In this document: piece after piece, positions 3,583 through 26,787 of the stretch
How positions within the stretch are numbered: the first letter of the stretch is position 1
How the letters are laid out: the number at the start of each line of letters is the position of its first letter
Origin: Candidatus Hydrogenedentales bacterium
GTDB taxonomy: Bacteria; Hydrogenedentota; Hydrogenedentia; Hydrogenedentales; SLHB01
Length of the DNA: 53,454 bases
Direction: 5' to 3'
Assembly (NCBI GenBank): GCA_041859475.1
Contig: JBHEKO010000545.1
Span: 1-53,454 of the forward strand
Notes under the pieces: model-generated
What the model was told of the DNA's origin: nothing
What the model saw: the letters and a program-made list of their open reading frames with translations, nothing else
Databases searched by the model: none
Made by a program: the position numbers and the translations under genes

Positions 3583-3584
3583 GA

Positions 3585-3689: not shown

Positions 3690-4337
3690 TTAGGCCAATC
3701 GACGCAATTCCACCACCTCGTCGGTCAGCGGTGTGAAGTCGGCGCGGTCGTGCGATGAGATGACGAGGGTCGCGCCCTGCGTGATCTTTCGTTGGGCGAG
3801 TTCTTCGATGAATCTGGCGCGGAGCGTATCGTCCAGGTTGGCGAACGGCTCGTCCAGAAGCAGGATGCCGGGGTTGGTCACGAGGGCCCGGGCGATGGCG
3901 AGGCGCTGTTGCTCGCCGCCGGAGAGCGTGGCCGGATAGGCGCGGCGCTTGTCGCTGAGCCCGCAAAACTCGAGCATGGCATGGGCGCGTGCGATGCGTT
4001 CGCGGCTGTCGATGCCCCGGCCTCGCAGGACAAATTCCAGGTGCCGTTCGGCGCGCATGTGGGGCCACAGTGCGAGGTCTTGAAACACCATACTCACCTC
4101 GTGTCCGTCGCGGCGCGCTTCACACCATCCGGGACGGACTTCGGTTCCGCCGACAAGCACCGTGCCGCTGTCGGGACGTTCGAGTCCCGCGATGATTCGT
4201 AGAACGGTGGTCTTGCCTACGCCGGATGGGCCGAAGAGTCCGAGTCCCTTACCATGTCCAATGCGCAGCGATATCCGCTCGAGTACGGGTGTCGCGCCGA
4301 ATCGTTTTGCGATATCGCGCAGTTCAATGCCGGGCAT
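3690..4337 (-). CDS. ABC importer ATP-binding subunit (FbpC/PotA family, short form)
   Basis: Walker A GPSGVGKT, Q-loop VFQD, signature LSGGEQQR, Walker B LLLDEP, H-switch SSHD. 215 aa with no C-terminal regulatory domain. Confidence 0.93.
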   Translation of the reverse strand: MPGIELRDIAKRFGATPVLERISLRIGHGKGLGLFGPSGVGKTTVLRIIAGLERPDSGTVLVGGTEVRPGWCEARRDGHEVSMVFQDLALWPHMRAERHLEFVLRGRGIDSRERIARAHAMLEFCGLSDKRRAYPATLSGGEQQRLAIARALVTNPGILLLDEPFANLDDTLRARFIEELAQRKITQGATLVISSHDRADFTPLTDEVVELRRLA

Positions 4338-5919
4338 GGGTCCACGCTTTCAATCTGCCGTATCCAAGGGCCGCGCAGAACGTCATGCCTATGACAAGGG
4401 CGACGGTCAGTAGACTTAGCGCGGCGACATAGGAATCCGGACCGTAGTGCATGAGGCTGAACAGGCGAATGGATAGTGTGGTCTCGCCCGGCGGGCAGAC
4501 GAGCACGCTCGTGTCGACTTCGCCCATGGTGAGCACGAAGACCAAACCCCACACGGCAGCAAGGTAGGGAGAGAGGAGCGGGAGCGCGAGGCCTGTCGTG
4601 CGCGCGCACCAAGATAAGCCCGCGACCGAGGCAGCCTCGTCGAGGCGCGGATCGAGACGGCGAGTTCCCGCAAGCATGCCTGCGTAGGCGAAGATGAAGA
4701 ATCGAGCCGCGCACCCCACGACGACGATGGCGAGACTGTCGTAGACCCAGCCTGCCGGGCCGTGATGATTCCAGAGCGCAATCAGGCCAAGCCCGAGTGC
4801 GCCGCCGGTGATGCCGAGAGGCAGGACGCTGAGCGCGAGCGCAATCCCGGAGGCGCGGCGGCGCAGTGTGGTCGCTAGGAGAAATGCCAATGCGGACGCG
4901 AAGGTCGCAGTTGCGATCGACACGAACACGCTTGTGAACATCTCCTTTTGAGCCGTGACCCACACATCGTAGAAAGTCCGCAACGGCAACGCGCGCACCA
5001 TGGTCACGCCGAGCGGAAGAGCAACGGCCACGAATAGGAGGATAAGGCAATAAGCCGCGCCGGCGACGCGCGACATGCGGCTTGCAGGCGCAGGCAGGGC
5101 GCGCGCGCGGCCCGAAAGCCATGCGTGGCGCGGGCGGACGTAGAATGCCCAGAGGATTCCTGCGAGGGCGCAAAGCGCGGCGAGAGGCAGCGCCTGTATG
5201 GTCGCTCCGGCGTAGTCGAAGACGGCGCTCAGTGCATTGATCTCGACGGGATAGGTGTTGACTTGCAGGAGGGACGGGACCGCGAAACTCACGAGCGCAT
5301 ATACGAAGACGAGTAGCATGCCGGTGGCGATTCCCGGAAGGAGCAGCGGAAGCATGATGCCGTGAAACACGCGCCGATGTTGGCCCGCAATGCGCGCCGC
5401 TTCGAGCAGGCGTCCGTCGAAACGGTTGAGCGCGGCCAGCGTGGCGGCCATGACGATGGGGTACCACGAAATTCCGAGTGCCCAGATGACGCCGCTCATG
5501 TGGAACATGCCCGGCCACGTGAGGGCCTTGGTGTTGAGTCCGCTGAATTGCACGACAAAGATGCCGTTGCGACCGAGTAGATCGACCCAGGCGATAGCGG
5601 CGATGTGCGGCGGCACGAGAACCGGAACTGCGAGGAGGCAGGTGAACACGGCGCGCCACGGCGCGGGAACGCGTGTAAGCGCAATGGCTGCCGACGCGCC
5701 GGCGATTCCCGCCAACGCAGAGGCACCGCCCGCGAGGAGCAGGCTGTTGCGCAAGAGTCCCCACTGACGCGCATCCATCAGGACGTTAGCGTATGCGCCG
5801 GAATCTTCAACCAACGCTTTCGCTAGCACGCAGGCGACGGGCAAGAGTACGACAACCGCGAAGGCGGCCAGCGCCGCGAGCGCAAACATCGTGCGCGTCC
5901 ATCGCGAAGCTTGGATCAT
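4324..5919 (-). CDS. ABC importer permease (FbpB/AfuB family, two MetI-like halves)
   Basis: Start reassigned to ATG at 5919 (MIQASRW), which overlaps the stop of the binding-protein gene (ATGA). Two EAA motifs (LLEAARIAG; LDEAASVAG); multiple TM segments. Confidence 0.9.
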   Translation of the reverse strand: MIQASRWTRTMFALAALAAFAVVVLLPVACVLAKALVEDSGAYANVLMDARQWGLLRNSLLLAGGASALAGIAGASAAIALTRVPAPWRAVFTCLLAVPVLVPPHIAAIAWVDLLGRNGIFVVQFSGLNTKALTWPGMFHMSGVIWALGISWYPIVMAATLAALNRFDGRLLEAARIAGQHRRVFHGIMLPLLLPGIATGMLLVFVYALVSFAVPSLLQVNTYPVEINALSAVFDYAGATIQALPLAALCALAGILWAFYVRPRHAWLSGRARALPAPASRMSRVAGAAYCLILLFVAVALPLGVTMVRALPLRTFYDVWVTAQKEMFTSVFVSIATATFASALAFLLATTLRRRASGIALALSVLPLGITGGALGLGLIALWNHHGPAGWVYDSLAIVVVGCAARFFIFAYAGMLAGTRRLDPRLDEAASVAGLSWCARTTGLALPLLSPYLAAVWGLVFVLTMGEVDTSVLVCPPGETTLSIRLFSLMHYGPDSYVAALSLLTVALVIGMTFCAALGYGRLKAWTHARH

Positions 5920-6968
5920 TTCAAAAACTCGGCCTTGATGAATTCGGCGGCCTTCTCGAATTCGGCGGCTGCTTTTGCAAAGTCGACGGCCATCGGATGA
6001 ATGTTGGAGAGCGTCGGCAATCCTTCGGGCGCCTTCACGGCAGGGTTGAGAGGGATTTGGAGAGACCGCGATTTTGCAAGGGCTTCCTCTACTTCGGGGC
6101 TCAGCAAGAAGTCGATGAGTTTCCGAGCCGACTCGGGATGCGGCGCGTCCTTCACGATGGCCACGGTATTGGGGATGATGAGCGCGCCGATGTCGCCCTC
6201 CTCCTGATCCGGAAACACCCACTTGGCGGGTTTGCCGTCGAGTACCGCGCCGTTGGCGTCGTCGGTGTCGGTCAAGCCTGCGGCGTACTCGCCGTTGGCT
6301 ACCATGTCGCGAACGGTGGCATTGCCCGCAAGCACGGCGACGTTGTTCTCCAGAAGGCCCTTGAAGTAAGCCTTGGCTTCGACTTCGCCCCATGTCGCGA
6401 AAAGGACTGCGGCGTGCGCGGCGGTGGTACCGAACAACGGCTTTGCGATGGCCGCCTTGCCGTGCCACTCGGGCTTGAGAAAGTCGCGAATGGACTTCGG
6501 CGGTTCGATTGCAAGGTCGGTGTTGTAGATGATCACGCGGCCTCGCGCCGCAAAACCGGACCAGTAGAATTCGGGGTCTTTAAACCCGGCGGGGATGGCG
6601 TCCGCGGAAGGGGAGTGATAAGGCGCAAGCAGTCCCTTCTGCTTGAGCATGATGGTCTGTACAATCTCGTTATTCCAAAAGACGTCCGCGCGCGGACGGT
6701 CCTTTTCGGCGGCGATGCGGCTGACAAGGCCGGTGGTCTTCGAGGCTTCCGTGTCGAACACGGGCAACGCCTTGATGCCTGTTTTCTTCTCGAACGCGTC
6801 GAGAATGGGTTTCGAGAACATTTCGTCGAGCGCGGTGTAGACGACCACCTCGGGTTGACTCTGCTTTGCGCACCCTACGACGCCCGCGAGTGCGGCGCAC
6901 ACGATCATCAAGCACCGAGTGCCTCGAAGGGAAGCCAGGAGTGCTTTGAGCGGTCGAAGAAATCTCAT
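5916..6968 (-). CDS. ABC substrate-binding lipoprotein (FbpA/AfuA-like family)
   Basis: Start at ATG 6968 (MRFLRPL). Lipobox-like VVGC. Family motifs 'VVVYTA', 'FEKKTGI', 'RPRADVFW', 'IPNTVAIVK.APHPESARKLIDFLLS'. Confidence 0.9.
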   Translation of the reverse strand: MRFLRPLKALLASLRGTRCLMIVCAALAGVVGCAKQSQPEVVVYTALDEMFSKPILDAFEKKTGIKALPVFDTEASKTTGLVSRIAAEKDRPRADVFWNNEIVQTIMLKQKGLLAPYHSPSADAIPAGFKDPEFYWSGFAARGRVIIYNTDLAIEPPKSIRDFLKPEWHGKAAIAKPLFGTTAAHAAVLFATWGEVEAKAYFKGLLENNVAVLAGNATVRDMVANGEYAAGLTDTDDANGAVLDGKPAKWVFPDQEEGDIGALIIPNTVAIVKDAPHPESARKLIDFLLSPEVEEALAKSRSLQIPLNPAVKAPEGLPTLSNIHPMAVDFAKAAAEFEKAAEFIKAEFLK

Positions 6969-6973
6969 GCCTA

Positions 6974-8689
6974 TCAGTTCCCCCGTGTGGTGTTCGGCAA
7001 CCCAGGCAGTTCTCTGAACCATCGCTGTCCGAGCGCGCGCTTCGCAATCTGGAGCAAAAAGAGAAGAGCGACCGTGTGAAGCATGGTATGCGCTAACCAT
7101 GGCACGAATCGAATCCCGATTTCGGGTGTATGGCGAACGAATCCGAATGCTCCCAAGACGGGCGAGATGAGGAGGGCGTACGGCTGTCTGCTCATGTATC
7201 CGTAAGCAATCGCACGCATTCCAAACAGGAGCAACGGGCTGAGCGCGTAAGCCAGTGTGACAAGCAGGGAAAGCGCGATGGCGGAACTTGTCGCTTGTGC
7301 ATGGAGCGATACGTAAGCGCTGATTGTGGAAACGGTCAGCACGCAGACCAGAGTGGTTACGGTTCCCGCCGCGAGCACTGGCCACAGGACCGGTTGCGCT
7401 GCAACGAGGGCGAAGAGCGGTAGGTTTGAGAGGGCGACGAGTCCCATGCCGAGCAGAGCATGGTAGGCGCCGCCCAAGACCTTTCCGAAGAGCAACTGTG
7501 ACGGGCTCACCAGTGTGAGTTGGAGTTGGTCCTTAGTTTCCCCCTCAGTCTCCTTGGTGAAGGCCGGAGCGGTCATAGGAATTGCGGAGACAATGGCCAC
7601 GACCGAGAGCATTCCCAACCAACCCAGGACGTAGTACTGCGACACGGCCGAGAACCTCTGCAATTCTCTGTTCGTGAGCAGCACGCCAAGGAAAGCCATA
7701 TTGGAGAGTGCAAGCGCCAGCACCACAATCATTCGCTTGAGTGGAGTGACGTTTTCCAGGAGTTTTCCATGTCTGAGTTCATGAAGAAGGACGGGGTTCC
7801 AATAATCCGGAATTGGACCGCGCTTTCGCCGGTGCGTGCGGGATGATGCGCGGAGTGCTTTGGAGATTGAGGAGGGAGGCTCTCCCGATTCCGACGCGGT
7901 TGCCGCGATAACCTGTGAGGGGCGGGAGATTGCGCGGCGAGCGACAAGATAGGCCACGGTCGCGAAGAACGCTTGTATGGCGACGCTGGATGCCACCGAA
8001 GCCGGCGGGACCGGTGTCCACGCATAGCTGAGGCAGAGCACGGCAGGCGATGTATACAGCAGCGTCCTGCCGAATCCAAGCAGGATGGCGGGATCTTGGG
8101 TGCGCTGCGAATAAACAAGCGCGCCAAGATAGGGCAGGACAGCGTATCCGAAAAGACAGAACGCAGACCATGCCATGGCGCGTTGGGAGGCGTGGCGGGA
8201 ATCGGGAGCGGAGGCCGAAACGGCTACCGCGCCTATGCCGCATGAGAGGGCGCATATGGGGAAGAGGAGCAAGGGGAGCTTCAGAGGAGCGAGGTCGAAG
8301 GGGAAAGCAAACGTCTGCAGTGCGAGCAGAGGAAGAAAGGCAATCGCAAGGAAGAGATACACGGCTAACGCGCTTGTCAGGATCCCGGCGATTATGCCGG
8401 AGGGGGTGATAGGAGTCAGTTTGAGGAGGTCGTAGGTGTTCTTGAGGCGCTCTTCTACAAGGGACTGGGCCGTTATTGAAGGCACAATGGCGAAAAGCGC
8501 AAACAGTAGAAAAGTGCCGGTATAGTGCGCGAAGAACTTGCCGCTCGTGACGGTATCCGAATAGCTCATAGGGTAGTCCGGCCAGATGCGATAGAGAATC
8601 CAGCAGGCAAGAAGGAGGGCAAGCGCCAAACACGCAAAGAGCGTGGCCTTCCGAGCCTGCTGTCGCACGCGGTGACGGACAATCGCCAT
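6974..8689 (-). CDS. ABC-2-type exporter permease, internally duplicated (paralog 4)
   Basis: Start reassigned to ATG 8689 (MAIVRHR). Two ABC-2 loop motifs (SLVEERLKNTYDLLKLTPITPSGIIAG; AFTKETEGETKDQLQLTLVSPSQLLFGK) separated by the NPVLLHELR linker. Confidence 0.82.
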   Translation of the reverse strand: MAIVRHRVRQQARKATLFACLALALLLACWILYRIWPDYPMSYSDTVTSGKFFAHYTGTFLLFALFAIVPSITAQSLVEERLKNTYDLLKLTPITPSGIIAGILTSALAVYLFLAIAFLPLLALQTFAFPFDLAPLKLPLLLFPICALSCGIGAVAVSASAPDSRHASQRAMAWSAFCLFGYAVLPYLGALVYSQRTQDPAILLGFGRTLLYTSPAVLCLSYAWTPVPPASVASSVAIQAFFATVAYLVARRAISRPSQVIAATASESGEPPSSISKALRASSRTHRRKRGPIPDYWNPVLLHELRHGKLLENVTPLKRMIVVLALALSNMAFLGVLLTNRELQRFSAVSQYYVLGWLGMLSVVAIVSAIPMTAPAFTKETEGETKDQLQLTLVSPSQLLFGKVLGGAYHALLGMGLVALSNLPLFALVAAQPVLWPVLAAGTVTTLVCVLTVSTISAYVSLHAQATSSAIALSLLVTLAYALSPLLLFGMRAIAYGYMSRQPYALLISPVLGAFGFVRHTPEIGIRFVPWLAHTMLHTVALLFLLQIAKRALGQRWFRELPGLPNTTRGN

Positions 8690-8733
8690 GAAGGCCCAGG
8701 GTGGACGCAGGCGTTGCGGGATACCGGGGAGTC

Positions 8734-10515
8734 TCATGCGCCCCGCTGTCGTCCGAGCCAGCGACGGCGTGCGAGGCTGATGGCGACTGCGATGAACGCC
8801 ATGACCGCCAAGACGTGGATGAAGAACAGGTACGGTTCGGAGAGGAACGGATCGTTGGTCATTTCCCAACCGCGCCCGAGGATAGCGCCGACAAACTGAA
8901 AGCCGCTTGATACGGGGGAGAGGAGTATGGCGAGGCTTTCGACCGCCCGATTGGACCAAGGAGACCAAGCGCCATCTATCATCTCGTTGAGGATTATCAC
9001 GATGAAGGAAGGTCCCATGAAATAGAAGGCGGTCGACGCGTAGCTGAAAGGAACGGCGATAGACGTGCGCCGGACCAGCATGGAGGCAATTGCGCCAAGG
9101 GCCAGGGAAGCGAGCGCGCACAGCATGATCCAAAAGACGAATGCCAACGTTATCGTACCCCCGTATTTGGCCTGAGCGACGATGCCCAAGACGGGTATCG
9201 AGCAGAGATACGCAAAAGCGAACAACTGCAGAATAAGTACGAATCCCGCCTTCATTTTGCCGGATGCAATCTGCATGGGGGAGAGGAGGGTCATTTGCAG
9301 CAGGTCGCGGGTGTCCTGTTCGCGTTCGCGTACGAAGGTCATTGCCTGCACGGCGGGCGCGCAGAAGACGATGAACATACCGACGATGACGTTCCACGCA
9401 TACGTGATGCTTGTGAAGTCATTGCTGCTTCTTGGCCTTTCTCGCCACACGTATAGAAGGTAGAAGAGAGAAATGTTAACCCCTGCGACCAAGATGATAG
9501 ACAGCAGCTTCTTCCAGTGCTTCATGTTGCGGAAGAGGCCGGTATACCGGTATTCGCGCAGAAAGACTGGATTACGGTGCGTGGGCATTGCGCGGAAGAT
9601 GCGCGTTCGAAGGCGCGGCTTGCTCTTCTTGCTCCACCGGAAGAATCCCTTGCCGTCTTGAGGAACAGTCGCCTCGCTCGGGCGGCACAAGCGCCGCCAT
9701 GCAATCAAAAGAGGAACGAAACTGAAAATTGCTTGCACCCCGCAAACGGTCAGTATTGCATTCAGTCCGCCTAGTCCCCTTGTAAGCGCCCCCCCATCGA
9801 GTAGATAGAATGGAGATCCTCGAAACCCCCACTCAACCGCAGCCTCAAGATGTCTTTCGTTGACGTTGTCGGGGTTCAGGTAGAGTTCGATGGCAAGCGC
9901 GCCAAGGAACAGAAATATCACGTAGCCGCCGAGGGCGAGGGCGCTCCAGAGGTAGGAATGGATGATGGCGCGAAGAGGATTGTGCTGAACGGAAGAGCAG
10001 GCGAGTCCAATCGAGGTGGATGTAACGGCGATGATGGAGACGGTCACGAGCATCAAGAACATGACTTCCACGTTCACGCCTACGATGAAGTAGGTTGTCG
10101 CAAGTAGCGGCATTGCGACGAGCATGAGGAGTACAAAGAGGCCGAGGATGTTTACGAACTTGCCTGCCAGGATGCCCGAGGGGCGTATGAGGCTGGTGCG
10201 GAGAAGGTCAAACGTATCGAGGTTGCGCTCCTCAAGTATCGCGCCGCCTGCGTAGCCGGGAATGAGCAGACACGCTGCGCCAAGTATCAGCATACCGAAC
10301 CATGCCACAATCTGCGTGGAGGCGCTGCCAACCATGATTAGGGGCACGTCGGCCCGGGGCCACATGCCCATCACGCCGAATGTCCCGATGGCGAGCAGCA
10401 GGACCAGCGCCAGGAAGAGGCGCACCGTGCGGACACTGCGCAGCAGTTCGCGGCGGATGAGCGCCACGAAGGGGAGGGGATGCGCCTGCCATCGGTTGCG
10501 TATTCGGACAATCAT
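8734..10515 (-). CDS. ABC-2-type exporter permease, internally duplicated (paralog 3)
   Basis: Start ATG 10515 in an ATGA overlap with the upstream stop. Motifs AILEERNLDTFDLLRTSLIRPSGILAGK and TFVREREQDTRDLLQMTLLSPMQIASGK; linker RNPVFLREYR. Confidence 0.85.
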   Translation of the reverse strand: MIVRIRNRWQAHPLPFVALIRRELLRSVRTVRLFLALVLLLAIGTFGVMGMWPRADVPLIMVGSASTQIVAWFGMLILGAACLLIPGYAGGAILEERNLDTFDLLRTSLIRPSGILAGKFVNILGLFVLLMLVAMPLLATTYFIVGVNVEVMFLMLVTVSIIAVTSTSIGLACSSVQHNPLRAIIHSYLWSALALGGYVIFLFLGALAIELYLNPDNVNERHLEAAVEWGFRGSPFYLLDGGALTRGLGGLNAILTVCGVQAIFSFVPLLIAWRRLCRPSEATVPQDGKGFFRWSKKSKPRLRTRIFRAMPTHRNPVFLREYRYTGLFRNMKHWKKLLSIILVAGVNISLFYLLYVWRERPRSSNDFTSITYAWNVIVGMFIVFCAPAVQAMTFVREREQDTRDLLQMTLLSPMQIASGKMKAGFVLILQLFAFAYLCSIPVLGIVAQAKYGGTITLAFVFWIMLCALASLALGAIASMLVRRTSIAVPFSYASTAFYFMGPSFIVIILNEMIDGAWSPWSNRAVESLAILLSPVSSGFQFVGAILGRGWEMTNDPFLSEPYLFFIHVLAVMAFIAVAISLARRRWLGRQRGA

Positions 10516-12251: not shown

Positions 12252-12254
12252 GTG

Positions 12255-13979: not shown

Positions 13980-13980
13980 C

Positions 13981-14910
13981 TCACAAGCCTCCCTTGGTGA
14001 TTTGCAGGAACACGTCTTCGAGCGACCCTTCCTCCTGCGCAAACGTCAGTACTTGCACACCGGCCTGGACCAACTTCGTATTGAGGCTCGACAACTCGAA
14101 CCGGTCGAGGTTGGAATTCATGTGAAACTCGTTTCCGGACTGTTCGATGTTGAAGAGTCCTGGAGTCTCCTCGAAAATCCGCATCGCGGTCACTGCGCCA
14201 TCCAGGACATCGATGCGCACTTCCCGTTCCTGCTTCATGCTGTTGAGGATGGAGCGGTATTCGCCCGCGGCCAAGAGCTTGCCGTGCTCGATGATGCCGA
14301 TCTTGTTGCACATGTCGCCCAACTCGGAGAGGATATGCGACGAGATGAGGATAGTCTTTCCCATGCGCTGCAGGGTCTTCAGGAGTTCGCGCATTTCGAT
14401 GCGCGCGCGCGGGTCGAGTCCACTGGCGGGCTCGTCGAGCAGCAGAACTTTCGGGTCGTGGAGTAGCGTCTTCGCAAGGCAACAGCGTTGTTTCATGCCT
14501 CGCGAGAACGCGCTGACGAAATCGTCGGCCTTGCCGGTGAGGTCCGTGAGTTCGAGCACGTCGTCGATGATGACCTTGCGCTTCTTGCTCGGGATCTTGT
14601 AGGCGGCCCCGAAGAAATCAAGATACTCGCGCAGACGCATGCCGTCGTACACACCGAAGGAGTCGGGCATGTAGCCAAGGATTTTCTTGATCTCGTAGGG
14701 CTTGCGGGTCACGTCGATGCCGTCGATCATGGCCATTCCGGAGGTAGGCTCCAGGAGCGTCGATAGAATGCGGATCGTCGTTGTCTTCCCAGCCCCATTG
14801 GGGCCGATGAATCCAAAAAGGTCGCCCTCTTCGATTTCGAGGTTGAAGTCACAGAGCGCAACGAAGTCGTTGTAGCGTTTTGTCAAGGCGACCGTTTCGA
14901 TTATTGCCAT
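13981..14910 (-). CDS. ABC-2/DrrA-family ATP-binding subunit
   Basis: Start ATG 14910 (MAIIETVAL). Walker A GPNGAGKTT, signature FSRGMKQR, Walker B LLLDEPASGLDP, ISSH. Confidence 0.95.
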   Translation of the reverse strand: MAIIETVALTKRYNDFVALCDFNLEIEEGDLFGFIGPNGAGKTTTIRILSTLLEPTSGMAMIDGIDVTRKPYEIKKILGYMPDSFGVYDGMRLREYLDFFGAAYKIPSKKRKVIIDDVLELTDLTGKADDFVSAFSRGMKQRCCLAKTLLHDPKVLLLDEPASGLDPRARIEMRELLKTLQRMGKTILISSHILSELGDMCNKIGIIEHGKLLAAGEYRSILNSMKQEREVRIDVLDGAVTAMRIFEETPGLFNIEQSGNEFHMNSNLDRFELSSLNTKLVQAGVQVLTFAQEEGSLEDVFLQITKGGL

Positions 14911-19408: not shown

Positions 19409-20301
19409 CGGAAGAGGCCTCCTCGTCGCATGACCTCAAGCGTCAGGCGCTCGAACGAGGTGTCGCTGGGCGCGAAGATATAACCAATTCCTCGCGCGAG
19501 ACAGAACTTGCGGATGGATTCGCAGAACCCCGCGAGGTTGTCGGTATATCGTTTTACCAGCATGGGGCTGGCGGAGATTTCGACGAAGCCGCCGGTTTCG
19601 CTGTCGACCAGGCGCAAATCGCCCACAATGGGCGGTTCAATCTCGTCGGGCGCGAGCACATGAACGACGTAGCAGTCCGACCCCGATTGCTGGAGTTTGC
19701 GAAGGCCCGGTTCGAAACCCTCGGGGTCCAACAAATCCGAGAATAGAACGGCGACGCCCTTGGCGCGGTTTCGCATGATGTAGGTGTGGGTGGACTGCTC
19801 CAGTTGGGTGGCGCCTTCGGGCGTCACGCTTGAGAGAAATGAGAGGAGCTGGCGCGCCTTCGCTTTGCCCCTGCACGGAGTGAGGCGAACGGAACCTGCC
19901 TGCGAAAAGGCCTCCGCGCTAACGCGGTCGTAGCCGATGAGTCCGACGTAGCCGATGGCGGCGGCGAGCTTGGTGGCAAAGTCGATCTTCGCCGGAGTCC
20001 CGTAGGCCATGGACCGGCTGGCGTCGATGAGGAGATGGACCGTCAGGTCTTCGGTTTCTTGGAAGAGCTTGAGATAGAGGGCGTTGAGGCGGCCGAAGAT
20101 GTTCCAATCGACATGGCGCAAGTCGTCGCCTTGAACGTAGTCGCGGTAGTCCGCGAATTCCACGCTGCTGCCTTTCCGCTTGCTCTTGCGTTCGCCCTTG
20201 GCCAGGCCCAGTTGGACCTTGCGCGCGGATATGGCGAGACGCTCCAGCTTCCGCAGGAAGTCGGGTTCAAGCAAGGTGTCGGCTGTTGTCACATCGGACA
20301 C
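19405..20301 (-). CDS. DUF58 family protein (MoxR-associated, vWA-like)
   Basis: 'GSSVEFADYRDYVQGDDLRHVDWN', 'LYLKLFQE', 'LLIDASRSM' are typical of DUF58. Confidence 0.93.
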   Translation of the reverse strand: MSDVTTADTLLEPDFLRKLERLAISARKVQLGLAKGERKSKRKGSSVEFADYRDYVQGDDLRHVDWNIFGRLNALYLKLFQETEDLTVHLLIDASRSMAYGTPAKIDFATKLAAAIGYVGLIGYDRVSAEAFSQAGSVRLTPCRGKAKARQLLSFLSSVTPEGATQLEQSTHTYIMRNRAKGVAVLFSDLLDPEGFEPGLRKLQQSGSDCYVVHVLAPDEIEPPIVGDLRLVDSETGGFVEISASPMLVKRYTDNLAGFCESIRKFCLARGIGYIFAPSDTSFERLTLEVMRRGGLFR

Positions 20302-20312
20302 GGGTTGATTCC

Positions 20313-21308
20313 TTACGCGACCTTTGCGCTCGTTTCCACCTTGGCCAACAAGTCCGCGACGACGTCATCCGTTGTGACGGCATCGGCTTCGGCTTCAAAA
20401 TTGAGAATGAGGCGATGCCGCAGCGCGGACAACGCGGAAAGACGGATATCTTCGAAGCTGACGTTGTAGCGGCCGGCGCGCAACGCGTTGACCTTTCCGC
20501 TCAACTGAAGGGCCTGTGCGCCGCGCGGGCTGGAGCCGAATCGCACGTACTTGTTGATCATCTCGGTGCTGAACGGGCTGCGCGGCTGCGTGGCAATGAC
20601 GAGCCGGACGGCGTAGTCGGTCACCTGCGGCGCGGACACCACGTCGCGCACGAGCGCTTGCCAGCGTTTGATACTGGCCGCGTCCATGACGGGTTCCCCG
20701 TGGGGGAGGTCGCGTTGGGTCGTGCGTTCGAGGATCGTGGTCAAGTCCTTCTGCGAAGGGGAGGCCACCAGCAATTTGAAGAAGAAACGGTCGAGTTGCG
20801 CCTCGGGCAGCGTATACGTGCCTTCCATCTCGATTGGATTTTGCGTGGCCATCACGAAGAATGGTTCTTCGAGTATGTGGATCTGGCGCGCCACCGACAC
20901 GGTGTGCTCCTGCATCGCTTCGAGCAACGCGGACTGCGTCTTGGGCGTGGCGCGATTGATTTCGTCGGCAAGCACAATGTTCGAGAAGATTGGACCGGGG
21001 CGGAATCGGAACTCGCGCCCGCCTTCGTCACTCTCCGCGATGATGTTGGTGCCGATGATATCGGCAGGCATCAAGTCGGGCGTGAATTGGATGCGCGAGA
21101 ACTGGAGGCTCAAGGCCTCGCTCAGCGTCCGCACGAGCAGGGTCTTTCCCAAGCCCGGCACGCCTTCCAGCAAGCAGTGCCCGCCCGCGAACAGGCAGGT
21201 CAACACACCGTCGATGACGGACTCGCTACCGACGATGACCTTTGCGATTTCGTCGTGCAGTTTTTGGAAATTGTTGCGGAATTCCTCCGCGTCCTTATGC
21301 ACATCCAT
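20313..21308 (-). CDS. moxR: MoxR-family AAA+ ATPase (MoxR-proper type)
   Basis: Walker A GVPGLGKT, 'RIQFTPDLMPADIIG', Walker B LADEINRATPKTQSALLEAMQE, 'ATQNPIEMEGTY.LPEAQLDRF'. Confidence 0.96.
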   Translation of the reverse strand: MDVHKDAEEFRNNFQKLHDEIAKVIVGSESVIDGVLTCLFAGGHCLLEGVPGLGKTLLVRTLSEALSLQFSRIQFTPDLMPADIIGTNIIAESDEGGREFRFRPGPIFSNIVLADEINRATPKTQSALLEAMQEHTVSVARQIHILEEPFFVMATQNPIEMEGTYTLPEAQLDRFFFKLLVASPSQKDLTTILERTTQRDLPHGEPVMDAASIKRWQALVRDVVSAPQVTDYAVRLVIATQPRSPFSTEMINKYVRFGSSPRGAQALQLSGKVNALRAGRYNVSFEDIRLSALSALRHRLILNFEAEADAVTTDDVVADLLAKVETSAKVA

Positions 21309-21370
21309 GCGACCCTCTCCTCTCGGTTTCGGATAGCGCTGTCATTTCAGTCGAGTCTATCGAATGCATT

Positions 21371-24313
21371 CTATTTGTCGTCTTCCTGCTTGCCGCGCCG
21401 CATCCGCTTGTCGAGCGCACGCTCCTTGGCAGCAAGCAGTTGAGTTGTGTAATCGCTTCGCTGTTGCTGCGGTTCCGAGGCCGCGGAAGCATCGGTCCCT
21501 TCCGTGAGCGCATCGCTCGGTACGCCCGCGGGAAGGTCCTGCAAACTCGTTGGCATTGCGCCGCGCACGTGTTCATAGGATAGCGTCGTGGCGGCTTGCG
21601 TTCCCATTCCATACACGCCGGTGAACGGAGCACGTTTGGGTTTTGGCTTCGGGATCAAGCGTTTGATGCCCGGCAGCATACGAAGAAATGCCAGCGCCCA
21701 TCGGAAGACGATCGTGAAGTCGACAACGACTCGGCGCACGAACACATCGAGTGGGAACAGGCACGCGGCAGCCGCGAGCAGGTAGGGCCAAATCGGGGTA
21801 ATCGCGGGCGTGGTCGTCAAGTTGTGTTCGAACGGATTTGCCGTTGGTTCAAGAATGTGGCCGCCGCCCACAGAGGCCAGTTGCTCAAGAAGGGCGATGT
21901 TGGTCGTGTTGTATTCGTACTCTTTCGAGTAGTTCATCGAGAGACCGGTGACCATCATGCCGCGCGACCCGTCTTCGCGCTCGTAGGTCAGGTTGACCAT
22001 GTACGTGCCGGAACCGTCCAGCGGAAACGCACCCTCGTAGATACCGGGGGCCGTTTGGATAAGGCCAAGCTCGCCTCGCGTGAATTGCGGCGGCGGTCCC
22101 GTGACGACGCCCTCGGGGCGAAGGAAATTCACGAAACGGCCTTGGTCGTCCACGGCATCGATTCGCACGTGGCCCTTTCCGTCTTTCACGCGCGTATCCA
22201 CGGAAAAGCTCGCGGGACTGGTCTCGCGCAGGGCCCAGCGCGTGGTTTGCGACCAGAATTGGTTGAATCCTTCCCAGTTGAGCCAATCCGGCGCCCAGCG
22301 GCTGGTCACGTCCGACGTGAACGCCACGGACTTGCCAAGGCCATAGCGCCATTGCGCGAGCACCGGGTCGTCGTCCTGGGAGATCATGGAGACGATGGCG
22401 CTGTCCTTGGGGGTCGTCGCCACATAGCCAAGCAGCGAAGGGAACGCGTCGGGGGCGATACCGCGAAGTATCTCCGAGTCATAAGTGACCTTGGGCACAA
22501 ACGGCTTCTCAACCACGAGCCCGCGCTTCACGACGGCCGCTTCCTTGGTGAAGATCTGAGGCAGCTTGCGCGGATCGGTGACGTAGTAGTAGTTGCCGCC
22601 TGTCTGATACGCGACCCACCGCAGCATGTCCTGGTCGGACTGCTGATGCGGATTGATGCAGATCGTGCTAACGGAGATCGTCGCGTCCGCAAGGTCCTTG
22701 AGCAGGCTTGCTTGGGGGGCGCCGGGGTCGCCGTCGGAGATGACAATGACGCGCTTGACGGAGGCCGTGCAGTCTTTCAGGGCGTCGTAGGCCTGTTTGA
22801 GCGTGGGGGCTACGTCGGGCATGTCGCCGATACGCGTCGTGTTGAGGGCGGCGCGCATGGCCGATTTGTCTCCAACGGGCTGGAGTTCATACAACCACGA
22901 TTCGCCCTGCTCCCAGTCGTAGGCGATTGCGCCCATGAGGTCTTGAGAGGAAAGGACTTCAAGGGCAGACGAGGCAATCGCGCGCGCCCAGGCGTTGCCG
23001 TCCGGGAATTCGCACGTGTGGAGAATCGTCACGAGCGCGTCTTGCGGGAGCACCTTGCGCTGGGTGAGGTCCATGTTGAGAGGGAGCGCGCGCTCGACGG
23101 GCGTTTGGTGATAGCCGCCTGCCCCGAAGGAGTTGGGGCCGCCGATCATCACCAACCCAATCCCCAGGTCGCGAACCATGGCTTCGAGGGCGTTGAGCTG
23201 ATCGGTCGAAAGGTCGGTTGCGCTCACGTTGGACAACACCACGGCATCGAAATTCTGAAACTGGGCAAGCGAAGTCGGCATGCTTCCCAGGTCGCCTTGC
23301 GTGACGTGCACGCCTTCGGCCTGCAACGCGGGCAACAGCCGTTGGCTGTGTTCCCAGTCGGCATCGATGTAGAGCACGCTGGGTTCGCCGTAGACGACGG
23401 AGAACGAGCGGCCCTCGTTATTCGCAAACGTGGTGTCCGACGTGGATTCGACGATGGCCTCGTACTCGTAGAACCCGGGGTTGCTCAGCTCCAATGGAAG
23501 CAGGAAAGCGTTGTCCCCTTTCTGCAAGGTTACCGGGGCCGTTTGCATGAGTTGACGCCCTTCGCGCCCGCGCTGATACAAGCGCAGCGTGGCCTGGCTA
23601 TCCTGATCGGCTTCCACTACGACGCGGAGCTTGAAAGGTTCATCGGCATTCACGCGATTGGGAGACGACACTTCGCGCATGCGCACTTCCGGTTGCTCGC
23701 CGAGCACGATAGGCAGAACGTCGACCGATACGCCCGCCGATTGAGCGAGCTTCGCCTCTTCCAGCGCCGAGCCATACGTCTCGTTGCCATCGCTGAGAAC
23801 GACGATACGGCGCATGTAGCCCTGAGGAAATGCGGCCATGGCAAGCCGAATCGCGGCGGCGATATCCGTTTGTTCGCCGCCCACATAGGATTGCACGGTG
23901 TCGAGTTCCAGGGTCGGCCCCATGCTGAGCTCGATGCTCGGGTTCTCTCCGAACGCGACGATGCCGGCCTCGTCTTTGGTCGTCATGTTGGCTTGGGTCA
24001 TCGTCTTCACCGTCTGTTCCGCGGCCGCGCGCGTGGGTTCGGGGATGCTGTACGAGCGGTCGAGCAGGAAGAAGACGGCAAGCTTGTCGTTAATCTTGAC
24101 CAGCTCGGCCCCGGCGAGCGCGAAGATCATGCAGAGCAGCACGAGACAGCGCAGGACGATGGCCGTCCACTTGCGCGTTGACGACAGCGACCGCAGCTTG
24201 GCTCCAAGCCAGACTGTCCAAGGTAGGAGCAGCAGAAACCCCAAGCCCAGCGGGAACGTGAACCGGATGTACTTGAGGTCGAGTGTGCCCAGGAGGTCGA
24301 TAAGCCAGTTCAC
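21371..24313 (-). CDS. Double-vWA, GATase1-like (DUF1355-type) domain membrane protein
   Basis: GTG start in a GTGA overlap. N-terminal TM pair; vWA1 MIDAS DRSYS; 'FDAVVLSNV...IGLVMIGGPNSFGAGGY' GATase-like; second vWA with degenerate MIDAS; C-terminal TM. Confidence 0.87.
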   Translation of the reverse strand: MNWLIDLLGTLDLKYIRFTFPLGLGFLLLLPWTVWLGAKLRSLSSTRKWTAIVLRCLVLLCMIFALAGAELVKINDKLAVFFLLDRSYSIPEPTRAAAEQTVKTMTQANMTTKDEAGIVAFGENPSIELSMGPTLELDTVQSYVGGEQTDIAAAIRLAMAAFPQGYMRRIVVLSDGNETYGSALEEAKLAQSAGVSVDVLPIVLGEQPEVRMREVSSPNRVNADEPFKLRVVVEADQDSQATLRLYQRGREGRQLMQTAPVTLQKGDNAFLLPLELSNPGFYEYEAIVESTSDTTFANNEGRSFSVVYGEPSVLYIDADWEHSQRLLPALQAEGVHVTQGDLGSMPTSLAQFQNFDAVVLSNVSATDLSTDQLNALEAMVRDLGIGLVMIGGPNSFGAGGYHQTPVERALPLNMDLTQRKVLPQDALVTILHTCEFPDGNAWARAIASSALEVLSSQDLMGAIAYDWEQGESWLYELQPVGDKSAMRAALNTTRIGDMPDVAPTLKQAYDALKDCTASVKRVIVISDGDPGAPQASLLKDLADATISVSTICINPHQQSDQDMLRWVAYQTGGNYYYVTDPRKLPQIFTKEAAVVKRGLVVEKPFVPKVTYDSEILRGIAPDAFPSLLGYVATTPKDSAIVSMISQDDDPVLAQWRYGLGKSVAFTSDVTSRWAPDWLNWEGFNQFWSQTTRWALRETSPASFSVDTRVKDGKGHVRIDAVDDQGRFVNFLRPEGVVTGPPPQFTRGELGLIQTAPGIYEGAFPLDGSGTYMVNLTYEREDGSRGMMVTGLSMNYSKEYEYNTTNIALLEQLASVGGGHILEPTANPFEHNLTTTPAITPIWPYLLAAAACLFPLDVFVRRVVVDFTIVFRWALAFLRMLPGIKRLIPKPKPKRAPFTGVYGMGTQAATTLSYEHVRGAMPTSLQDLPAGVPSDALTEGTDASAASEPQQQRSDYTTQLLAAKERALDKRMRRGKQEDDK

Positions 24314-25263
24314 GCGACCTCCTCCCAGGCAAAGCGCTGAATTCGGTCATTATCGGTATCCGCTACGAACAAGAAACCCTTCGGAGAAATCGCGATTCCG
24401 CGGGGTGCCGCAAACAAGCCCGGTTCGCGCCCTGGTTCTCCAAAGCAAGAACGGAAAGTCCCGTCCAATCCGAAGATAGAAAGACGGTTATTGCCATATT
24501 CGCAGGCCACGAGCGCATCGCCTGGGGCAAGCGCAAGGTCATGGGGAAACTTTAGCCGCCCCGGTTCGGCTCCTGCGCCTCCCATGCTGCGGATAAACTT
24601 GCCGTCTGGGGTGAAGCACTGAATGCGATGGTTGGCCGTATCGCAGACGTAAACGATGTCTTTGGCGAACGCGATGGCCATCGGGCGGGAGAACTCGCCT
24701 GGGTTCTCTCCATGTTTGCCCCATTGGCGCAGGTAGTTGCCCTTGCCGTCGAAGACGTGGACACGCTCCGCGCCAGTCCCGTATTCGGAGATGTAGAGTG
24801 TGCCGTCAGAGCCTTCCGCAATGTCCGTGGGGTAGATGAACTCGTTGTCGCCTGTGCCGGTGGACCCCCATTGGCGCTGCAACTGCCCTTCGGGCGTGTA
24901 CTCGGTGATGTGGCTATAATGGGTATCCGGGATGAGGACACGTCCGTCGTTCGCGAATGTGACGCTCGTGGGCGTGCCGTTTTCCGCTGACGGCATGGAC
25001 CATTTGCGTTTGAATGCGCCGTCGTGGTCGAAGACTTGCACCCTTCCCGTCGTGTCCGCCACATACAACTCGGTCGCGGTTGCGCCCACGGCGCGCGGCC
25101 TTATAAACATGCCCACGCGCGTGCCCGATTGTCCCCACGATAATACGCGACCCTTTGCCCCTCCTGACTGGGCACAGCCATGCACCATGGCAATCGCGGC
25201 GGAAGCAAGAAAGGTTCGGCGAGTCACGCGGATCGGTTCCCTCCGGCTCGGCGTCATCGACAT
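24310..25263 (-). CDS. NHL-repeat beta-propeller, probable Tat-exported lipoprotein
   Basis: Repeated 'F..P..IA....LYV.DT.N.RIQ.F...G.F' units. N-terminus TRRTFL (twin-Arg) followed by hydrophobic stretch and HGC lipobox-like Cys. Confidence 0.9.
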   Translation of the reverse strand: MSMTPSRREPIRVTRRTFLASAAIAMVHGCAQSGGAKGRVLSWGQSGTRVGMFIRPRAVGATATELYVADTTGRVQVFDHDGAFKRKWSMPSAENGTPTSVTFANDGRVLIPDTHYSHITEYTPEGQLQRQWGSTGTGDNEFIYPTDIAEGSDGTLYISEYGTGAERVHVFDGKGNYLRQWGKHGENPGEFSRPMAIAFAKDIVYVCDTANHRIQCFTPDGKFIRSMGGAGAEPGRLKFPHDLALAPGDALVACEYGNNRLSIFGLDGTFRSCFGEPGREPGLFAAPRGIAISPKGFLFVADTDNDRIQRFAWEEVA

Positions 25264-25278
25264 TGAATGAATTATGGC

Positions 25279-26787
25279 TTACTGCTGCGCGGTTGCCGAA
25301 TCCGGTTCGAGCGACCCGAAATACTGGCGCACGTATTCGCGGGCGCCAGGCGGAATCTCTTCCTTCGTCAATGCCTGTTCGGATTGTTGCTGCACTTGCA
25401 CAAGGGCCTCCGTCGAAAAACTCCTCTCGGCGTCCCCCTCTTTTTGCGGTGCGGAACGTTGCATCAAATCGGCGAGGATCTTCCCTTTGGTCATATCTCC
25501 CGGAAGCATGCTCGGGTCATACTGGCCGTCCACGTCCGGAAGCTCTCCGATACTGTTCCCCTGGCCGCGTCCCGGACCGCGCATGCCGAGGCCTTGACCG
25601 TTGCAGGAGGCACACCCCTTGCCATTGCACAATGCGCAGAACTTGGCAAAATCCCCCTTGCACATCTTCGCGCGGCAGTCACCGAACTTGCTCATACAGG
25701 CTTCGAGCTTCTTCATCTGTTCCATCATGGCTTTCAGGTCTTCCATGGACAAATTGAGCTTCTCAAGTTCCTTGAGCGCGTTCTCCATGTCCTTCATGCT
25801 CAGGCCCGAGGCGATGTTTTCCAGGGCCTTGCCCAATTCGGAATTCTGGCCGCCAAGCATCTTCGAGAGCTCTTTCAGCTCCTCCGACAGCTTTGTCTGT
25901 TCGCCCGGCGTCATTTCTCCGGACTTCAGCTTTTCGATCATCTTCTGCGCTTCCGCGGCGGCCTTCTCGAAATTGCCCTTCTGAATGTTCTGGGCCAACT
26001 CCTTGGTCATCTCAAGCCGCGAAGGGTCACCCTTCATCTGCGGTAGCTTGGCCTGATTTGCCATCTGCTCGCGGCGCTCCGCCAACTCGGTCATGACGTT
26101 GCTCAATTTCGCGGTGGCTTGTTTCTCGGTCAATTCGCCGGCTTGCAGTTTCTCCGCGATGCGCTCGACCTCTTCGGCAATCTCCTTCAGATTCTCGTCG
26201 CCCTGGGCCGCGGCCTCCTTCACCGGTTGCGCCGCGACGCGGAGCCGCTCCGCGTGCTCGCGCATGGCCAACTCATTCTGCTTGGCCTGAGCCTCACGGG
26301 CGCGTTGTCCAAAGAGATCGAACTCGGGAAGAAGCAGGTACCCCACGGCGAACAGCATGACGGGAATCGTGAGGTAGCGCATCCGGCGCGGCAGACCAAC
26401 CGGAAAGTCGCGGTGGGGAACAATCTTGCCCAAATAATAGCGCGCGTCGGAATGAACCGCGTCTACCATAGGCGTATGGACGCCGGCCAACTCGAGCGAA
26501 CTGGTCAGGCGTTCCTGAAGTCCCAGACGCTTGTCTGCTTCGACGGCCGACTGCAATTCACTCGGTCGCTTGAGCAACGTGTATACGGTCGCCCACAGGA
26601 TGCCCGCCGCCACAAGAATCGCGCCCACGGGGATCGGGTCGCCGAGCATGGGGAAAAGCCGGGTGATGCTCAGCCAAAGGCAGGCCAGCGAAAAAGTGAG
26701 GAGCATGCCGGTGCTGAGCGAGTTAAGCCATAGTCTCAACGACAGCCGGCGACGTATCGACCGGAGGACAACGGTTAAGGGGTCCAT
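25279..26787 (-). CDS. Hypothetical membrane protein: three TM segments, long coiled coil, Cys/Gly-rich segment
   Basis: 502 aa ORF with SD GGAGG. N-terminal TM pair plus a third TM, heptad-rich region, CALCNGKG-CASCNGQG, and C-terminal 'IPPGAREYVRQYF' of the kind seen in proteins of MoxR-vWA clusters. Confidence 0.82.
   Translation of the reverse strand: MDPLTVVLRSIRRRLSLRLWLNSLSTGMLLTFSLACLWLSITRLFPMLGDPIPVGAILVAAGILWATVYTLLKRPSELQSAVEADKRLGLQERLTSSLELAGVHTPMVDAVHSDARYYLGKIVPHRDFPVGLPRRMRYLTIPVMLFAVGYLLLPEFDLFGQRAREAQAKQNELAMREHAERLRVAAQPVKEAAAQGDENLKEIAEEVERIAEKLQAGELTEKQATAKLSNVMTELAERREQMANQAKLPQMKGDPSRLEMTKELAQNIQKGNFEKAAAEAQKMIEKLKSGEMTPGEQTKLSEELKELSKMLGGQNSELGKALENIASGLSMKDMENALKELEKLNLSMEDLKAMMEQMKKLEACMSKFGDCRAKMCKGDFAKFCALCNGKGCASCNGQGLGMRGPGRGQGNSIGELPDVDGQYDPSMLPGDMTKGKILADLMQRSAPQKEGDAERSFSTEALVQVQQQSEQALTKEEIPPGAREYVRQYFGSLEPDSATAQQ

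Follow-up and report, generated by a model that had tools for sequence, protein, structure and literature searches.

The Bat clusters, in which genes for a MoxR-proper AAA+ ATPase, a DUF58 protein and proteins with von Willebrand factor A (vWA) domains lie together, are to our knowledge among the most widespread bacterial gene clusters of no known mechanism, and the role of GldA, GldF and GldG (GldAFG) from the gliding Bacteroidota is likewise unresolved. Here we describe a locus from a Candidatus Hydrogenedentales bacterium (contig JBHEKO010000545.1; the window, that is, the whole stretch of DNA analysed, comprises 53,454 nucleotides) in which, according to the list of open reading frames (ORFs) of the window, 15 consecutive co-oriented genes, here called G1 to G15, are read on the minus strand from position 26787 to 3690. 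In our reading, to which we give a probability of roughly 55%, the locus is a single operon for a composite system of the inner membrane and the periplasm, in which a Bat-like MoxR envelope module is joined to a GldAFG-like transporter and an importer is carried as an accessory. The parts are of known kinds, and what is new is the permanent joining of a Bat-like module to a GldG-class protein and an ATP-binding cassette (ABC) transporter of the ABC-2 type, the families of G1 and G7, and the embedded importer. In full-text literature searches, with most papers of subscription journals outside our reach, we found this association described nowhere.

The Bat (MoxR-proper/DUF58/vWA) clusters with which we compare the locus are those of B. 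fragilis, Riemerella and Francisella, BB0170-0176 of Borrelia and RL3499-3502 of Rhizobium, and phenotypes of Bat-type clusters in other bacteria are stress and envelope related (PMC11834572). In archaea, DUF4350 proteins, which are GldG-like according to HHpred, are encoded in operons with MoxR and vWA genes, and these operons have been predicted to specify "a secretion or membrane remodeling complex" (Makarova et al., PMC5898192).

Conservation and organization of the operon

Species-representative genomes were searched with a G7 profile, which led to 66 loci with 10-kb flanks, and 10 more were obtained by exact-protein look-ups; all of these loci (designated by L numbers) were annotated by tblastn and jackhmmer searches that started from the 15 proteins of the operon. 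Homologs of G7 and G1 occur almost exclusively in metagenome-assembled genomes (MAGs) of Candidatus Hydrogenedentota, and the proteins of one Hydrogenedentales MAG (L001) are 93-99% identical to those of the window. Throughout the Hydrogenedentota (30 loci and L067), the order G1-G2-G3-G4-G5-G6-G7-G8-permease(s) is invariant where sequence is available. The set from other phyla comprises 36 loci from Chloroflexota (mostly Anaerolineae), one Armatimonadota MAG and one 'Zipacnadia' MAG. Here the order is G7-G8-P-G1-G4-G5-G6-G3 (19 of the 22 Chloroflexota/Armatimonadota loci with enough downstream sequence), the permease P is a single-domain ABC-2 protein of about 320 amino acids, G2 is missing, and the importer is absent from all 22 informative loci. 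G7 lies directly before G8 in 51 of 55 informative loci, and the genes flanking the operon differ in every locus. The core consists of eight families, namely G1, G3, G4, G5, G6, G7, G8 and one ABC-2 permease (G9), whereas G2, the extra permease paralogs G10 to G12 and the importer G13 to G15 are additions found only in Hydrogenedentota. As the clustering of the eight families survives a complete reordering of the genes between phyla, it is strong evidence for a functional coupling of the core. The original prediction was therefore right to group the MoxR-DUF58-vWA module with the ABC-2 transporter, as the same eight families are clustered in at least two phyla and in two gene orders.

Some Anaerolineae carry two to three LysM/M23-peptidase-like genes and a gene for a melibiase-like protein of about 830 amino acids directly upstream of G7 (L035, L039, L050, L052 and L061, all Chloroflexota), and in other Anaerolineae loci a gene for an FHA/Ig-like protein takes their place. 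These genes may be lineage-specific extensions of the cluster; as each of them was found in only 5-7 loci, they were rejected as members of the core.

Within the window the genes are tightly spaced (Table 1). As had been predicted, no gap between the 15 co-oriented genes exceeds 62 nucleotides, many neighbours overlap by four nucleotides in ATGA or GTGA couplings, and a gap of only 5 nucleotides lies ahead of the importer. Internal terminators, named earlier as features that would split the unit, are not apparent, since terminator-like sites within the operon are no commoner than in shuffled sequences (10 versus 11.2 expected, and 7 versus 13.3 expected). The promoter predicted upstream of G1 obtained a score of 9/12 from the scanner, and the number of such sites equals the chance expectation. 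However, in an alignment with L067, the -35 TTG, the -10 CGTATACTG and the ribosome-binding site (RBS) form the sole conserved block upstream of G1, in a region that is otherwise unalignable between the two, and of 12 further Hydrogenedentota loci, 7 have an element TTGnnn-N16-18-TATA(A/C)T at a distance of 30-90 nucleotides ahead of G1. In all, the element recurs in 9 of 14 relatives. By our own rough estimate, such an element would occur by chance at well under 1% per locus. This conservation across relatives makes the predicted sigma70-like promoter real in a comparative sense, although "canonical" was too strong a word for an element that is weak by consensus. Three biofilm metatranscriptome runs contain the locus, and the contigs assembled from them span the whole operon at low and even depth (about 2-9), with 11 of 14 junctions between genes crossed; contigs of runs X1 (6684-7012) and X2 (6624-7019) bridge G12 and G13. 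With regard to the single transcript that had been proposed, these contigs are compatible with it but not decisive. We regard the locus as a single operon because of the spacing and overlaps of its genes, the lack of a terminator excess, the conserved promoter and the contigs from RNA runs that cross its junctions.

At 5726 and 6271, the RNA runs seemed to have loose ends, which turned out to be 18-nucleotide chance matches to an unrelated high-depth contig and not a rearrangement. Rfam gave no riboswitch or leader RNA that could point to the ligand of the importer or to an internal start, either in the window, in the G1 upstream region or in seven related loci. An internal promoter (TTG-N-TATAAT) before the binding-protein gene was not found in those relatives that have larger gaps at this position, and some of these "gaps" are miscalled gene ends. 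In L069, a gap of 217 nucleotides between the last permease gene and the binding-protein gene (8784-9000) holds two copies of a GGAACGCCTTCGGCGTGCT hairpin, which may be an element like the repetitive extragenic palindromes or an attenuator. After G15 of the window, no intrinsic terminator was detected (fold z-score -0.88, no hairpin with U-tract, and likewise no hit of the terminator scanner). The convergent intergenic region at this 3' end contains a C-rich near-repeat of CCCCAGA and CCCCAAA units that is unstructured on the minus strand and may be a Rho loading site.

Table 1. Genes and predicted signals of the operon in the window, in order of transcription, with the distance of each gene to the next (negative values, overlap).
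Feature	Position	Strand	Description	Basis	Distance to next gene (nucleotides)
Promoter	26814..26842	-	Predicted, sigma-70-like; about 27 nucleotides 5' of the G1 start codon	TTGCAC-N17-TATACT, then RBS GGAGGA
G1	25279..26787	-	502 aa (amino acids)	No Pfam family; 127 homologs, nearly all in Hydrogenedentota	+15
G2	24310..25263	-	317 aa, NHL six-bladed beta-propeller	Pfam NHL, E=1.2e-24; twin-arginine signal and lipobox	-4
G3	21371..24313	-	980 aa, membrane protein	Pfam VWA, VWA_3, GATase1_like	+62
G4	20313..21308	-	331 aa, MoxR-proper AAA+ ATPase	PF07726 AAA_3, 210.5 bits (gathering threshold 27); AAA_lid_2, 49.4 bits	+11
G5	19405..20301	-	298 aa, DUF58 protein	Pfam DUF58, 117.5 bits; vWA-like, DxSxS at D93	-4
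G6	17447..19408	-	653 aa	Pfam BatA (PF07584), 54.6 bits; VWA_2, 57.2 bits	-4 (GTGA, if G7 starts at 17450)
G7	14901..17456	-	About 850 aa, GldG/DUF4350-class accessory protein	Likely start GTG at 17450	-10/-19
G8	13981..14919	-	312 aa, ABC ATPase of the DrrA/GldA/NatA type	Pfam ABC_tran; NCBIfam drrA 238.6 bits and GldA 225.4 bits, both below cutoff	+1
G9	12255..13979	-	574 aa, fused double ABC-2 permease, about 12 transmembrane segments	Pfam ABC2_membrane_2, ABC2_membrane_3; two matched stretches	+3
G10	10512..12251	-	579 aa, fused ABC-2 permease paralog	Pfam; 28% identical to G9, 39% to G11	-4
G11	8734..10515	-	593 aa, fused ABC-2 permease paralog	Pfam	-4
G12	6974..8737	-	587 aa, fused ABC-2 permease paralog	Pfam; without clear ortholog, also in L067, the closest complete relative	+5
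G13	5916..6968	-	350 aa, lipoprotein, solute-binding protein of the FbpA/PhnS/thiamine/polyamine class	Pfam SBP_bac_8, SBP_bac_6, SBP_bac_1	-4
G14	4324..5919	-	531 aa, fused double BPD_transp_1 importer permease	Pfam, two matched stretches	-14
G15	3690..4337	-	215 aa, importer ABC ATPase without C-terminal regulatory domain	Pfam ABC_tran, 121.9 bits
3' end of operon	3583..3689	-	C-rich, G-poor tract (CCCCAGACCCCAAACCC...) ahead of a convergent gene	No intrinsic terminator

Bat-like and GldAFG-like components

A Pfam or NCBIfam assignment is clear for 13 of the 15 products (G2-G6 and G8-G15), and it confirms every label given earlier as MoxR, DUF58, vWA, ABC-2 or binding-protein importer. Like a Bat cluster, the locus encodes a MoxR-proper AAA+ ATPase (G4) followed by a DUF58 protein (G5). 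The Walker A (GVPGLGKT) and Walker B (DE) motifs of G4 are intact, and together with its AAA lid and a DUF58/vWA neighbourhood, formed by G5 and G6 downstream and G3 upstream, this identifies G4 as MoxR-proper. Also as in Bat clusters, there are membrane proteins of the BatA/BatB type. In G6, which matches PF07584 and VWA_2 and has the DxSxS motif, a BatA-type N-terminus with two transmembrane segments is followed by a vWA domain with an intact metal ion-dependent adhesion site (MIDAS; D112), a further extracytoplasmic region and a C-terminal transmembrane segment. G3 has two N-terminal transmembrane segments, a first vWA domain with intact MIDAS (D85-x-S-x-S), a DUF7408-like domain, a second and degenerate vWA domain, a GATase1_like domain and C-terminal transmembrane segments, and a hidden Markov model of the G7 domain matches its residues 337-409. 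The DxSxS motifs of the MIDAS are thus intact in G3, G5 and G6. As the loop between the first and the second N-terminal transmembrane segment of G3 and G6 is strongly positive, the vWA domains of both proteins are predicted by the positive-inside rule to face the periplasm, a topology that has been established experimentally for the BatA-like protein BB0173 of Borrelia (PMC5700661). G4 and G5, having neither transmembrane segments nor signal peptides, should be cytoplasmic. The propeller protein G2, in which a TRRTFL motif and a (G/A)C lipobox are kept in 17 of 19 orthologs, is probably a lipoprotein exported by the twin-arginine translocation (Tat) pathway and a candidate periplasmic partner or client.

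The locus also differs from Bat clusters. MoxR is not encoded by the first gene, an ABC-2 transporter, the DUF7408 protein G7 and the novel helical protein G1 are permanent companions of the module, and G3 combines two vWA domains with GATase1-like domains. Since no Pfam families of tetratricopeptide repeats (TPR; BatC/BatE) or of BatD were found among the 15 products at E<=0.01, the locus is Bat-like and not a Bat operon.

A combination of MoxR, vWA and beta-propeller proteins is also known from the 'ternary' type of NTP-dependent conflict or defence systems (Kaur, Burroughs, Iyer, Aravind 2020, PMC7159879), and the match of G4 to Pfam bpMoxR (40.7 bits, above the gathering threshold) and the position of the beta-propeller gene G2 next to vWA genes would fit a system of this type. 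In such a system bpMoxR would be the best match, the vWA proteins would carry effector domains and the propeller would be cytoplasmic, whereas G4 is matched by AAA_3 with 210.5 bits, effector domains are not present, and G2, which the second phylum lacks, is predicted to be a lipoprotein that reaches the periplasm by the Tat pathway. The matches given by PADLOC were generic P-loop ones and nothing specific, and the operon is vertically conserved at a fixed, housekeeping-like position and not mobile. We consider it highly improbable that the locus is a conflict system.

The second part of the locus begins with G7. An AlphaFold 2 model of this protein (predicted local distance difference test score, pLDDT, of 79.7; predicted TM-score of 0.77) begins with a signal peptide and a beta-sandwich, which are followed by an alpha/beta domain of the flavodoxin/GATase1-like kind (residues 138-310), a transmembrane hairpin and a large beta-rich region at the C-terminus. 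The short cytoplasmic loop of the hairpin, LKRREMAW, is the most conserved motif of the family and is invariant. Foldseek gave domain-level matches only, to non-catalytic (middle) domains of GH164, GH42 and GH2 enzymes with TM-scores <0.2, which permit no functional inference beyond the fold class, and the G7 profile had no match among PDB sequences. At E<=1e-30, a set of 1.84 billion proteins contains 368 representatives of the family. Pfam DUF7408 is matched by 14 of 24 family members (best E=1.1e-6), and G7 of the window itself stays below the threshold for DUF7408 (17.9 bits) and likewise for ThuA. A Chloroflexota ortholog reaches 34.6 bits for DUF7408 (gathering threshold 27) and has a weak match to DUF4350 (E=3e-4). 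With its signal peptide and extracytoplasmic flavodoxin/GATase1-like domain, the G7 family has the features that characterize DUF4350/DUF7408 proteins. A DUF7408-type domain is common to G3 and G7, and G6 orthologs show only faint matches.

With G7, the locus resembles the archaeal DUF4350-MoxR-vWA (arCOG01314-type) operons in that a membrane-anchored, GldG-related flavodoxin-like protein with a signal peptide occurs with MoxR and vWA proteins, and in that most components are membrane-bound or extracytoplasmic. The partners by which these operons were defined, a COG0714 MoxR ATPase and vWA proteins (PMC5898192), are both encoded here. Unlike in the archaeal operons, the GldG-class protein is accompanied by a complete ABC-2 transporter (ATPase and permease), which is missing in archaea, its domain is DUF7408 rather than DUF4350, it has an internal transmembrane hairpin in place of a single C-terminal transmembrane segment, and no S-layer or Ig-like partners were identified at the locus. 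In comparison with GldAFG, the locus likewise encodes an ATPase of the DrrA/GldA type (G8), ABC-2 permeases and a large extracytoplasmic flavodoxin-like (GIFT-class) accessory protein, and the best NCBIfam matches of G8 and the permeases include GldA and GldF. It differs in that the permeases are fused duplicates and multiplied, that the transporter is tied to MoxR and vWA genes, and that no gliding or type IX secretion genes lie nearby.

In all loci, the first permease after G8 is the ortholog of G9 (best reciprocal match, 30-64% identity), and G9 is the only universally orthologous permease. Additional permeases, 0 to 5 per locus, have mutual identities of 25-39% and no stable orthology. As a fused permease contains two transmembrane domains, each of them could form a complete transporter together with two copies of G8, and we infer that the paralogs are alternative membrane modules that share a single ATPase. 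A conserved sub-module made up of a G12-type permease and the importer was considered and rejected, because G12 has no ortholog and the importer-adjacent permease varies from locus to locus.

G1 is present in both gene orders, that of Hydrogenedentota and that of Chloroflexota. Its AlphaFold 2 model (pLDDT of 78) is all-helical, with an N-terminal transmembrane hairpin and a third transmembrane segment ahead of a bundle of helices, after which a Gly-rich, disordered linker leads to a conserved pair of C-terminal helices. A Foldseek search with the model gave no match in PDB at E<1. Sequence matches to SMC, Rad50 and LmuB were due to coiled-coil composition only and were discarded. Residues 384-399 contain two adjacent CxxCxGxG motifs (CALCNGKG and CASCNGQG) resembling the zinc-finger repeats of DnaJ. 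This pair was not retained as a feature of the family, as it is unconserved: the double motif is found only in the lineage of the window, a single one in three relatives, and Chloroflexota orthologs have almost no cysteines.

The importer G13-G15

G13 to G15 share with the FbpABC, AfuABC, PhnSTU and ThiBPQ importers the order binding protein, fused double permease and ATPase, as well as the fold family of the binding protein. The best NCBIfam match of G13 is PhnS, the 2-aminoethylphosphonate binding protein (119.6 bits, cutoff 310), and those of G14 and G15 are PhnU2 (113.3 bits, cutoff 593) and PhnT2 (180.7 bits, cutoff 457.7), so that all three scores are far below the cutoffs for an assignment as a PhnSTU 2-aminoethylphosphonate importer. 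The closest PDB matches of G13 are FbpA-type proteins (E=1e-22). The Fe3+ ligands of H. influenzae FbpA, which we take to be His9, Glu57, Tyr195 and Tyr196, align to D48, N100, D236 and D237 of G13; none of the four is kept, which speaks against a ferric-ion importer of the FbpA type, and a motif GLTDTDDANG is invariant in 120 G13 homologs. Thus, unlike in the known importers, an invariant Asp-rich motif replaces the Fe3+ ligands, the usual C-terminal regulatory domain of the ATPase is lacking, and the importer genes form the 3' part of an operon for an exporter and MoxR. Because all four ferric-ion ligands of FbpA are replaced in G13, and with PhnS as best match below its cutoff, the earlier label of a metal-type importer finds no support.

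Of the loci anchored on G7, six have the importer behind the permeases (L003, L004, L015, L016, L020 and L067), and in L019 only the binding protein is present. Four loci in which the sequence runs into unrelated genes lack the importer, namely L007 (sugar kinase/nucleotidyltransferase and PIG-L), L009 (PMT_2/TPR protein), L024 (acyl-CoA dehydrogenase) and L025 (purH and purD). When loci on long contigs were anchored on the importer, the binding-protein gene was found directly after ABC-2 permeases in 8 of 9 cases. Further cluster genes lie upstream of the importer-adjacent permeases in L069-L072 and L075, only permeases are seen within the sequence fetched for L068 and L074, L073 has the importer with one permease and no other cluster gene, and in L076 the importer stands alone beside RHS/PKD genes. 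In L069 and L075 the importer is located between the permeases and purH-purD, and in L025 the permeases abut purH-purD directly, an arrangement that looks like a clean deletion of the importer. Presence and absence of the importer are interleaved on a tree of G6 and G7, which suggests an ancestral linkage in Hydrogenedentota followed by several losses. In view of this patchy retention, the losses, the solitary importer of L076 and the absence from the 22 informative Chloroflexota/Armatimonadota loci, the importer is a well-retained, phylum-specific accessory and does not belong to the core. The claim that it is part of the system was therefore right in so far as it is kept after the permeases in most Hydrogenedentota lineages and contigs bridge G12 and G13, and went too far with regard to the four loci that lost it, to L076 and to the other phyla.

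Variants of the importer were also seen. In L071 (ENA contig k127_4195207, 9001-11576), genes for the binding protein and the importer permease are present without an importer ATPase gene, and a convergent gene of the MurJ/MatE family follows directly. The importer ATPase of L076 is shortened to 141 amino acids. A convergent ferritin gene lies directly downstream of the importer in L072 (12345-12857) and L074 (6289-6810), and it is the sole hint to iron in any neighbourhood.

The original prediction had understood the locus as a system for the maturation of a metal centre or complex, in which the importer would supply a metal, MoxR and the vWA proteins would insert it into a client, and the ABC-2 transporter would deliver or export the product. 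Precedents for such a system are NorQ/NorD, CbbQ/CbbO and CoxD/CoxE, and NosDFY is an ABC-2 system that assembles a metal centre. The presence of MoxR, DUF58 and intact MIDAS motifs, an importer that is adjacent in most Hydrogenedentota, the FbpA-type proteins as closest solved relatives of G13 and the two ferritin genes are in line with this explanation. So is the conserved Tat signal on G2, as Tat signals are typical of proteins that are exported folded, often with a cofactor. However, the residues that would bind ferric ion are replaced by a motif that does not vary, and the best family matches of the importer are of the phosphonate type, below cutoff throughout. Furthermore, the Chloroflexota/Armatimonadota version lacks both the importer and G2, and at least four Hydrogenedentota loci lack the importer. 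The core contains no metalloenzyme client, and the vWA domains with their MIDAS are predicted to lie on the periplasmic side of the membrane, with MoxR and DUF58 in the cytoplasm, so that the proposed metal insertion is not borne out either. We judge metal maturation to be distinctly unlikely.

Proposed coupling of the modules and surroundings of the operon

For the Bat-like module joined to a GldAFG-like transporter, the following mode of action can be envisaged. The Bat-like part consists of the cytoplasmic ATPase G4 with the DUF58 adaptor G5 and of the membrane proteins G6 and G3 with their predicted periplasmic MIDAS-containing vWA and flavodoxin-like domains. The transporter part is made up of G8 as ATPase, G9 as fused permease and G7 as extracytoplasmic protein of the GldG/DUF4350 class, with the helical G1 accompanying both parts. 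MoxR and DUF58 might use ATP in order to assemble or remodel a periplasm-facing membrane scaffold, formed by the vWA proteins G3 and G6 together with G7, via cytoplasmic loops and tails, and the ABC-2 transporter, acting through G7, might export or mechanically handle an envelope or surface component bound by the periplasmic vWA/flavodoxin-like scaffold. The system would then be a secretion or membrane-remodelling complex of the same kind as predicted for the archaeal DUF4350-MoxR-vWA operons. The G2 lipoprotein and up to five extra, fast-evolving permeases on a single ATPase would be elaborations of Hydrogenedentota, and G13 to G15 are predicted to be a co-transcribed accessory that imports a small ligand, the binding of which would not be of the tyrosine-based ferric-ion type.

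Several observations weigh against this reading. It offers no explanation of the way in which an AAA+ ATPase in the cytoplasm could act on vWA domains in the periplasm. With the NCBIfam equivalog models of the gliding transporter, G8 reaches 225.4 bits for GldA (TIGR03522, cutoff 402.6), G9, G11 and G12 reach 20-32 bits for GldF (TIGR03518, cutoff 288.5) and G10 has no match to it. G7 has no match in NCBIfam, including GldG (TIGR03521), and ABC_transp_aux was found in 0 of 24 G7-family members at E<=0.1. As all three equivalog models fail, "GldAFG-like" denotes an analogy of fold and architecture only and not membership. The support from RNA is weak, because the contigs from RNA runs are unstranded and flanking genes are equally covered; moreover, a DNA-like run of the same study has a similar depth, so that DNA carry-over into the RNA data is possible. 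Finally, L007 has G8 without any permease, and outside Hydrogenedentota G7-G8(-P-G1) occur without MoxR nearby in L056, L059 and L063, which indicates that the modules can separate.

These last arrangements lead to the possibility that the locus consists of three functionally independent operons, one for a Bat-like module of the stress response, one for an efflux pump of the ABC-2 type and one for the import of a nutrient, which are placed head to tail with read-through and are not coupled. The behaviour of the importer described above, namely its occurrence with a single permease in L073, alone in L076 and its lack in four other loci, agrees with such an independence. Also, the evolution of the binding protein, which shows 60-70% identity within the phylum, is much slower than that of G7 (32-37%) or, taken together, of G7 and the permeases (about 30-37%), which suggests a different selective regime. 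On the other hand, eight core families would hardly have remained clustered in at least two phyla through a full reordering if they were independent, and start and end of the operon are conserved between flanks that are different in every locus. In addition, the junctions between the modules are translationally coupled (4-nucleotide overlap at G6/G7, 5-nucleotide gap at G12/G13), and G3 and G7, from different modules, share the DUF7408-type domain, of which G6 orthologs retain only faint matches. Three independent operons therefore appear to us a rather unlikely explanation. If the coupling were only genomic, the locus would be an ordinary large envelope operon of an uncultured phylum.

A more far-reaching version of the coupled system, which we consider doubtful, is that the core forms a new machine with two ATPases, MoxR and ABC-2, working on one periplasmic scaffold of vWA and GldG-class proteins, which would unify the Bat, the archaeal DUF4350-MoxR-vWA and the GldAFG systems, with the importer closing a cycle of export and re-import. 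Independently of this version, a linkage that outlasts the reshuffling of genes between phyla suggests that at least some Bat-like systems work with an envelope transporter, and the locus offers a comparative handle on two long-unexplained systems, Bat and GldAFG. It also defines two conserved families without a curated assignment of their own, those of G1 and G7, and it encodes a binding protein that is highly conserved and has an unusual, Asp-rich site, the ligand of which is accessible in vitro.

Some features of the DNA around the operon were noted. The intergenic region of 640 nucleotides upstream of G1 contains, at 27190-27270 and about 400 nucleotides upstream of the G1 promoter, a strongly AT-rich tract (TAAATGTTTATTTCTATTAAAATCAATTC...AATAAAACAATAG), whereas the GC content of the genome is about 60%. 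Further upstream, between a gene for an EIIA-like protein of the phosphotransferase system (27424-27885) and a 2-hydroxyacid dehydrogenase gene (28330), about 40 nucleotides with a hairpin GCCGACA...TGTCGGC (28094-28135) are covered at 3-6x the local depth in all three RNA runs by contigs whose flanks differ from the window, which suggests a short element that is common to other sequences of the sample; Rfam had no match for it. At 29738-36227, the plus strand carries a housekeeping block with genes for tRNA-Gly, tRNA-Lys and tRNA-Leu, trigger factor, a presumed ClpP ORF, ClpX and Lon. On the other side of the operon, the convergent gene at 67-3582 on the plus strand encodes a protein of 1171 amino acids with an F5/8 type C domain and HZS_alpha, the middle domain of hydrazine synthase alpha, and a gene of this kind sits at the same place in L067.

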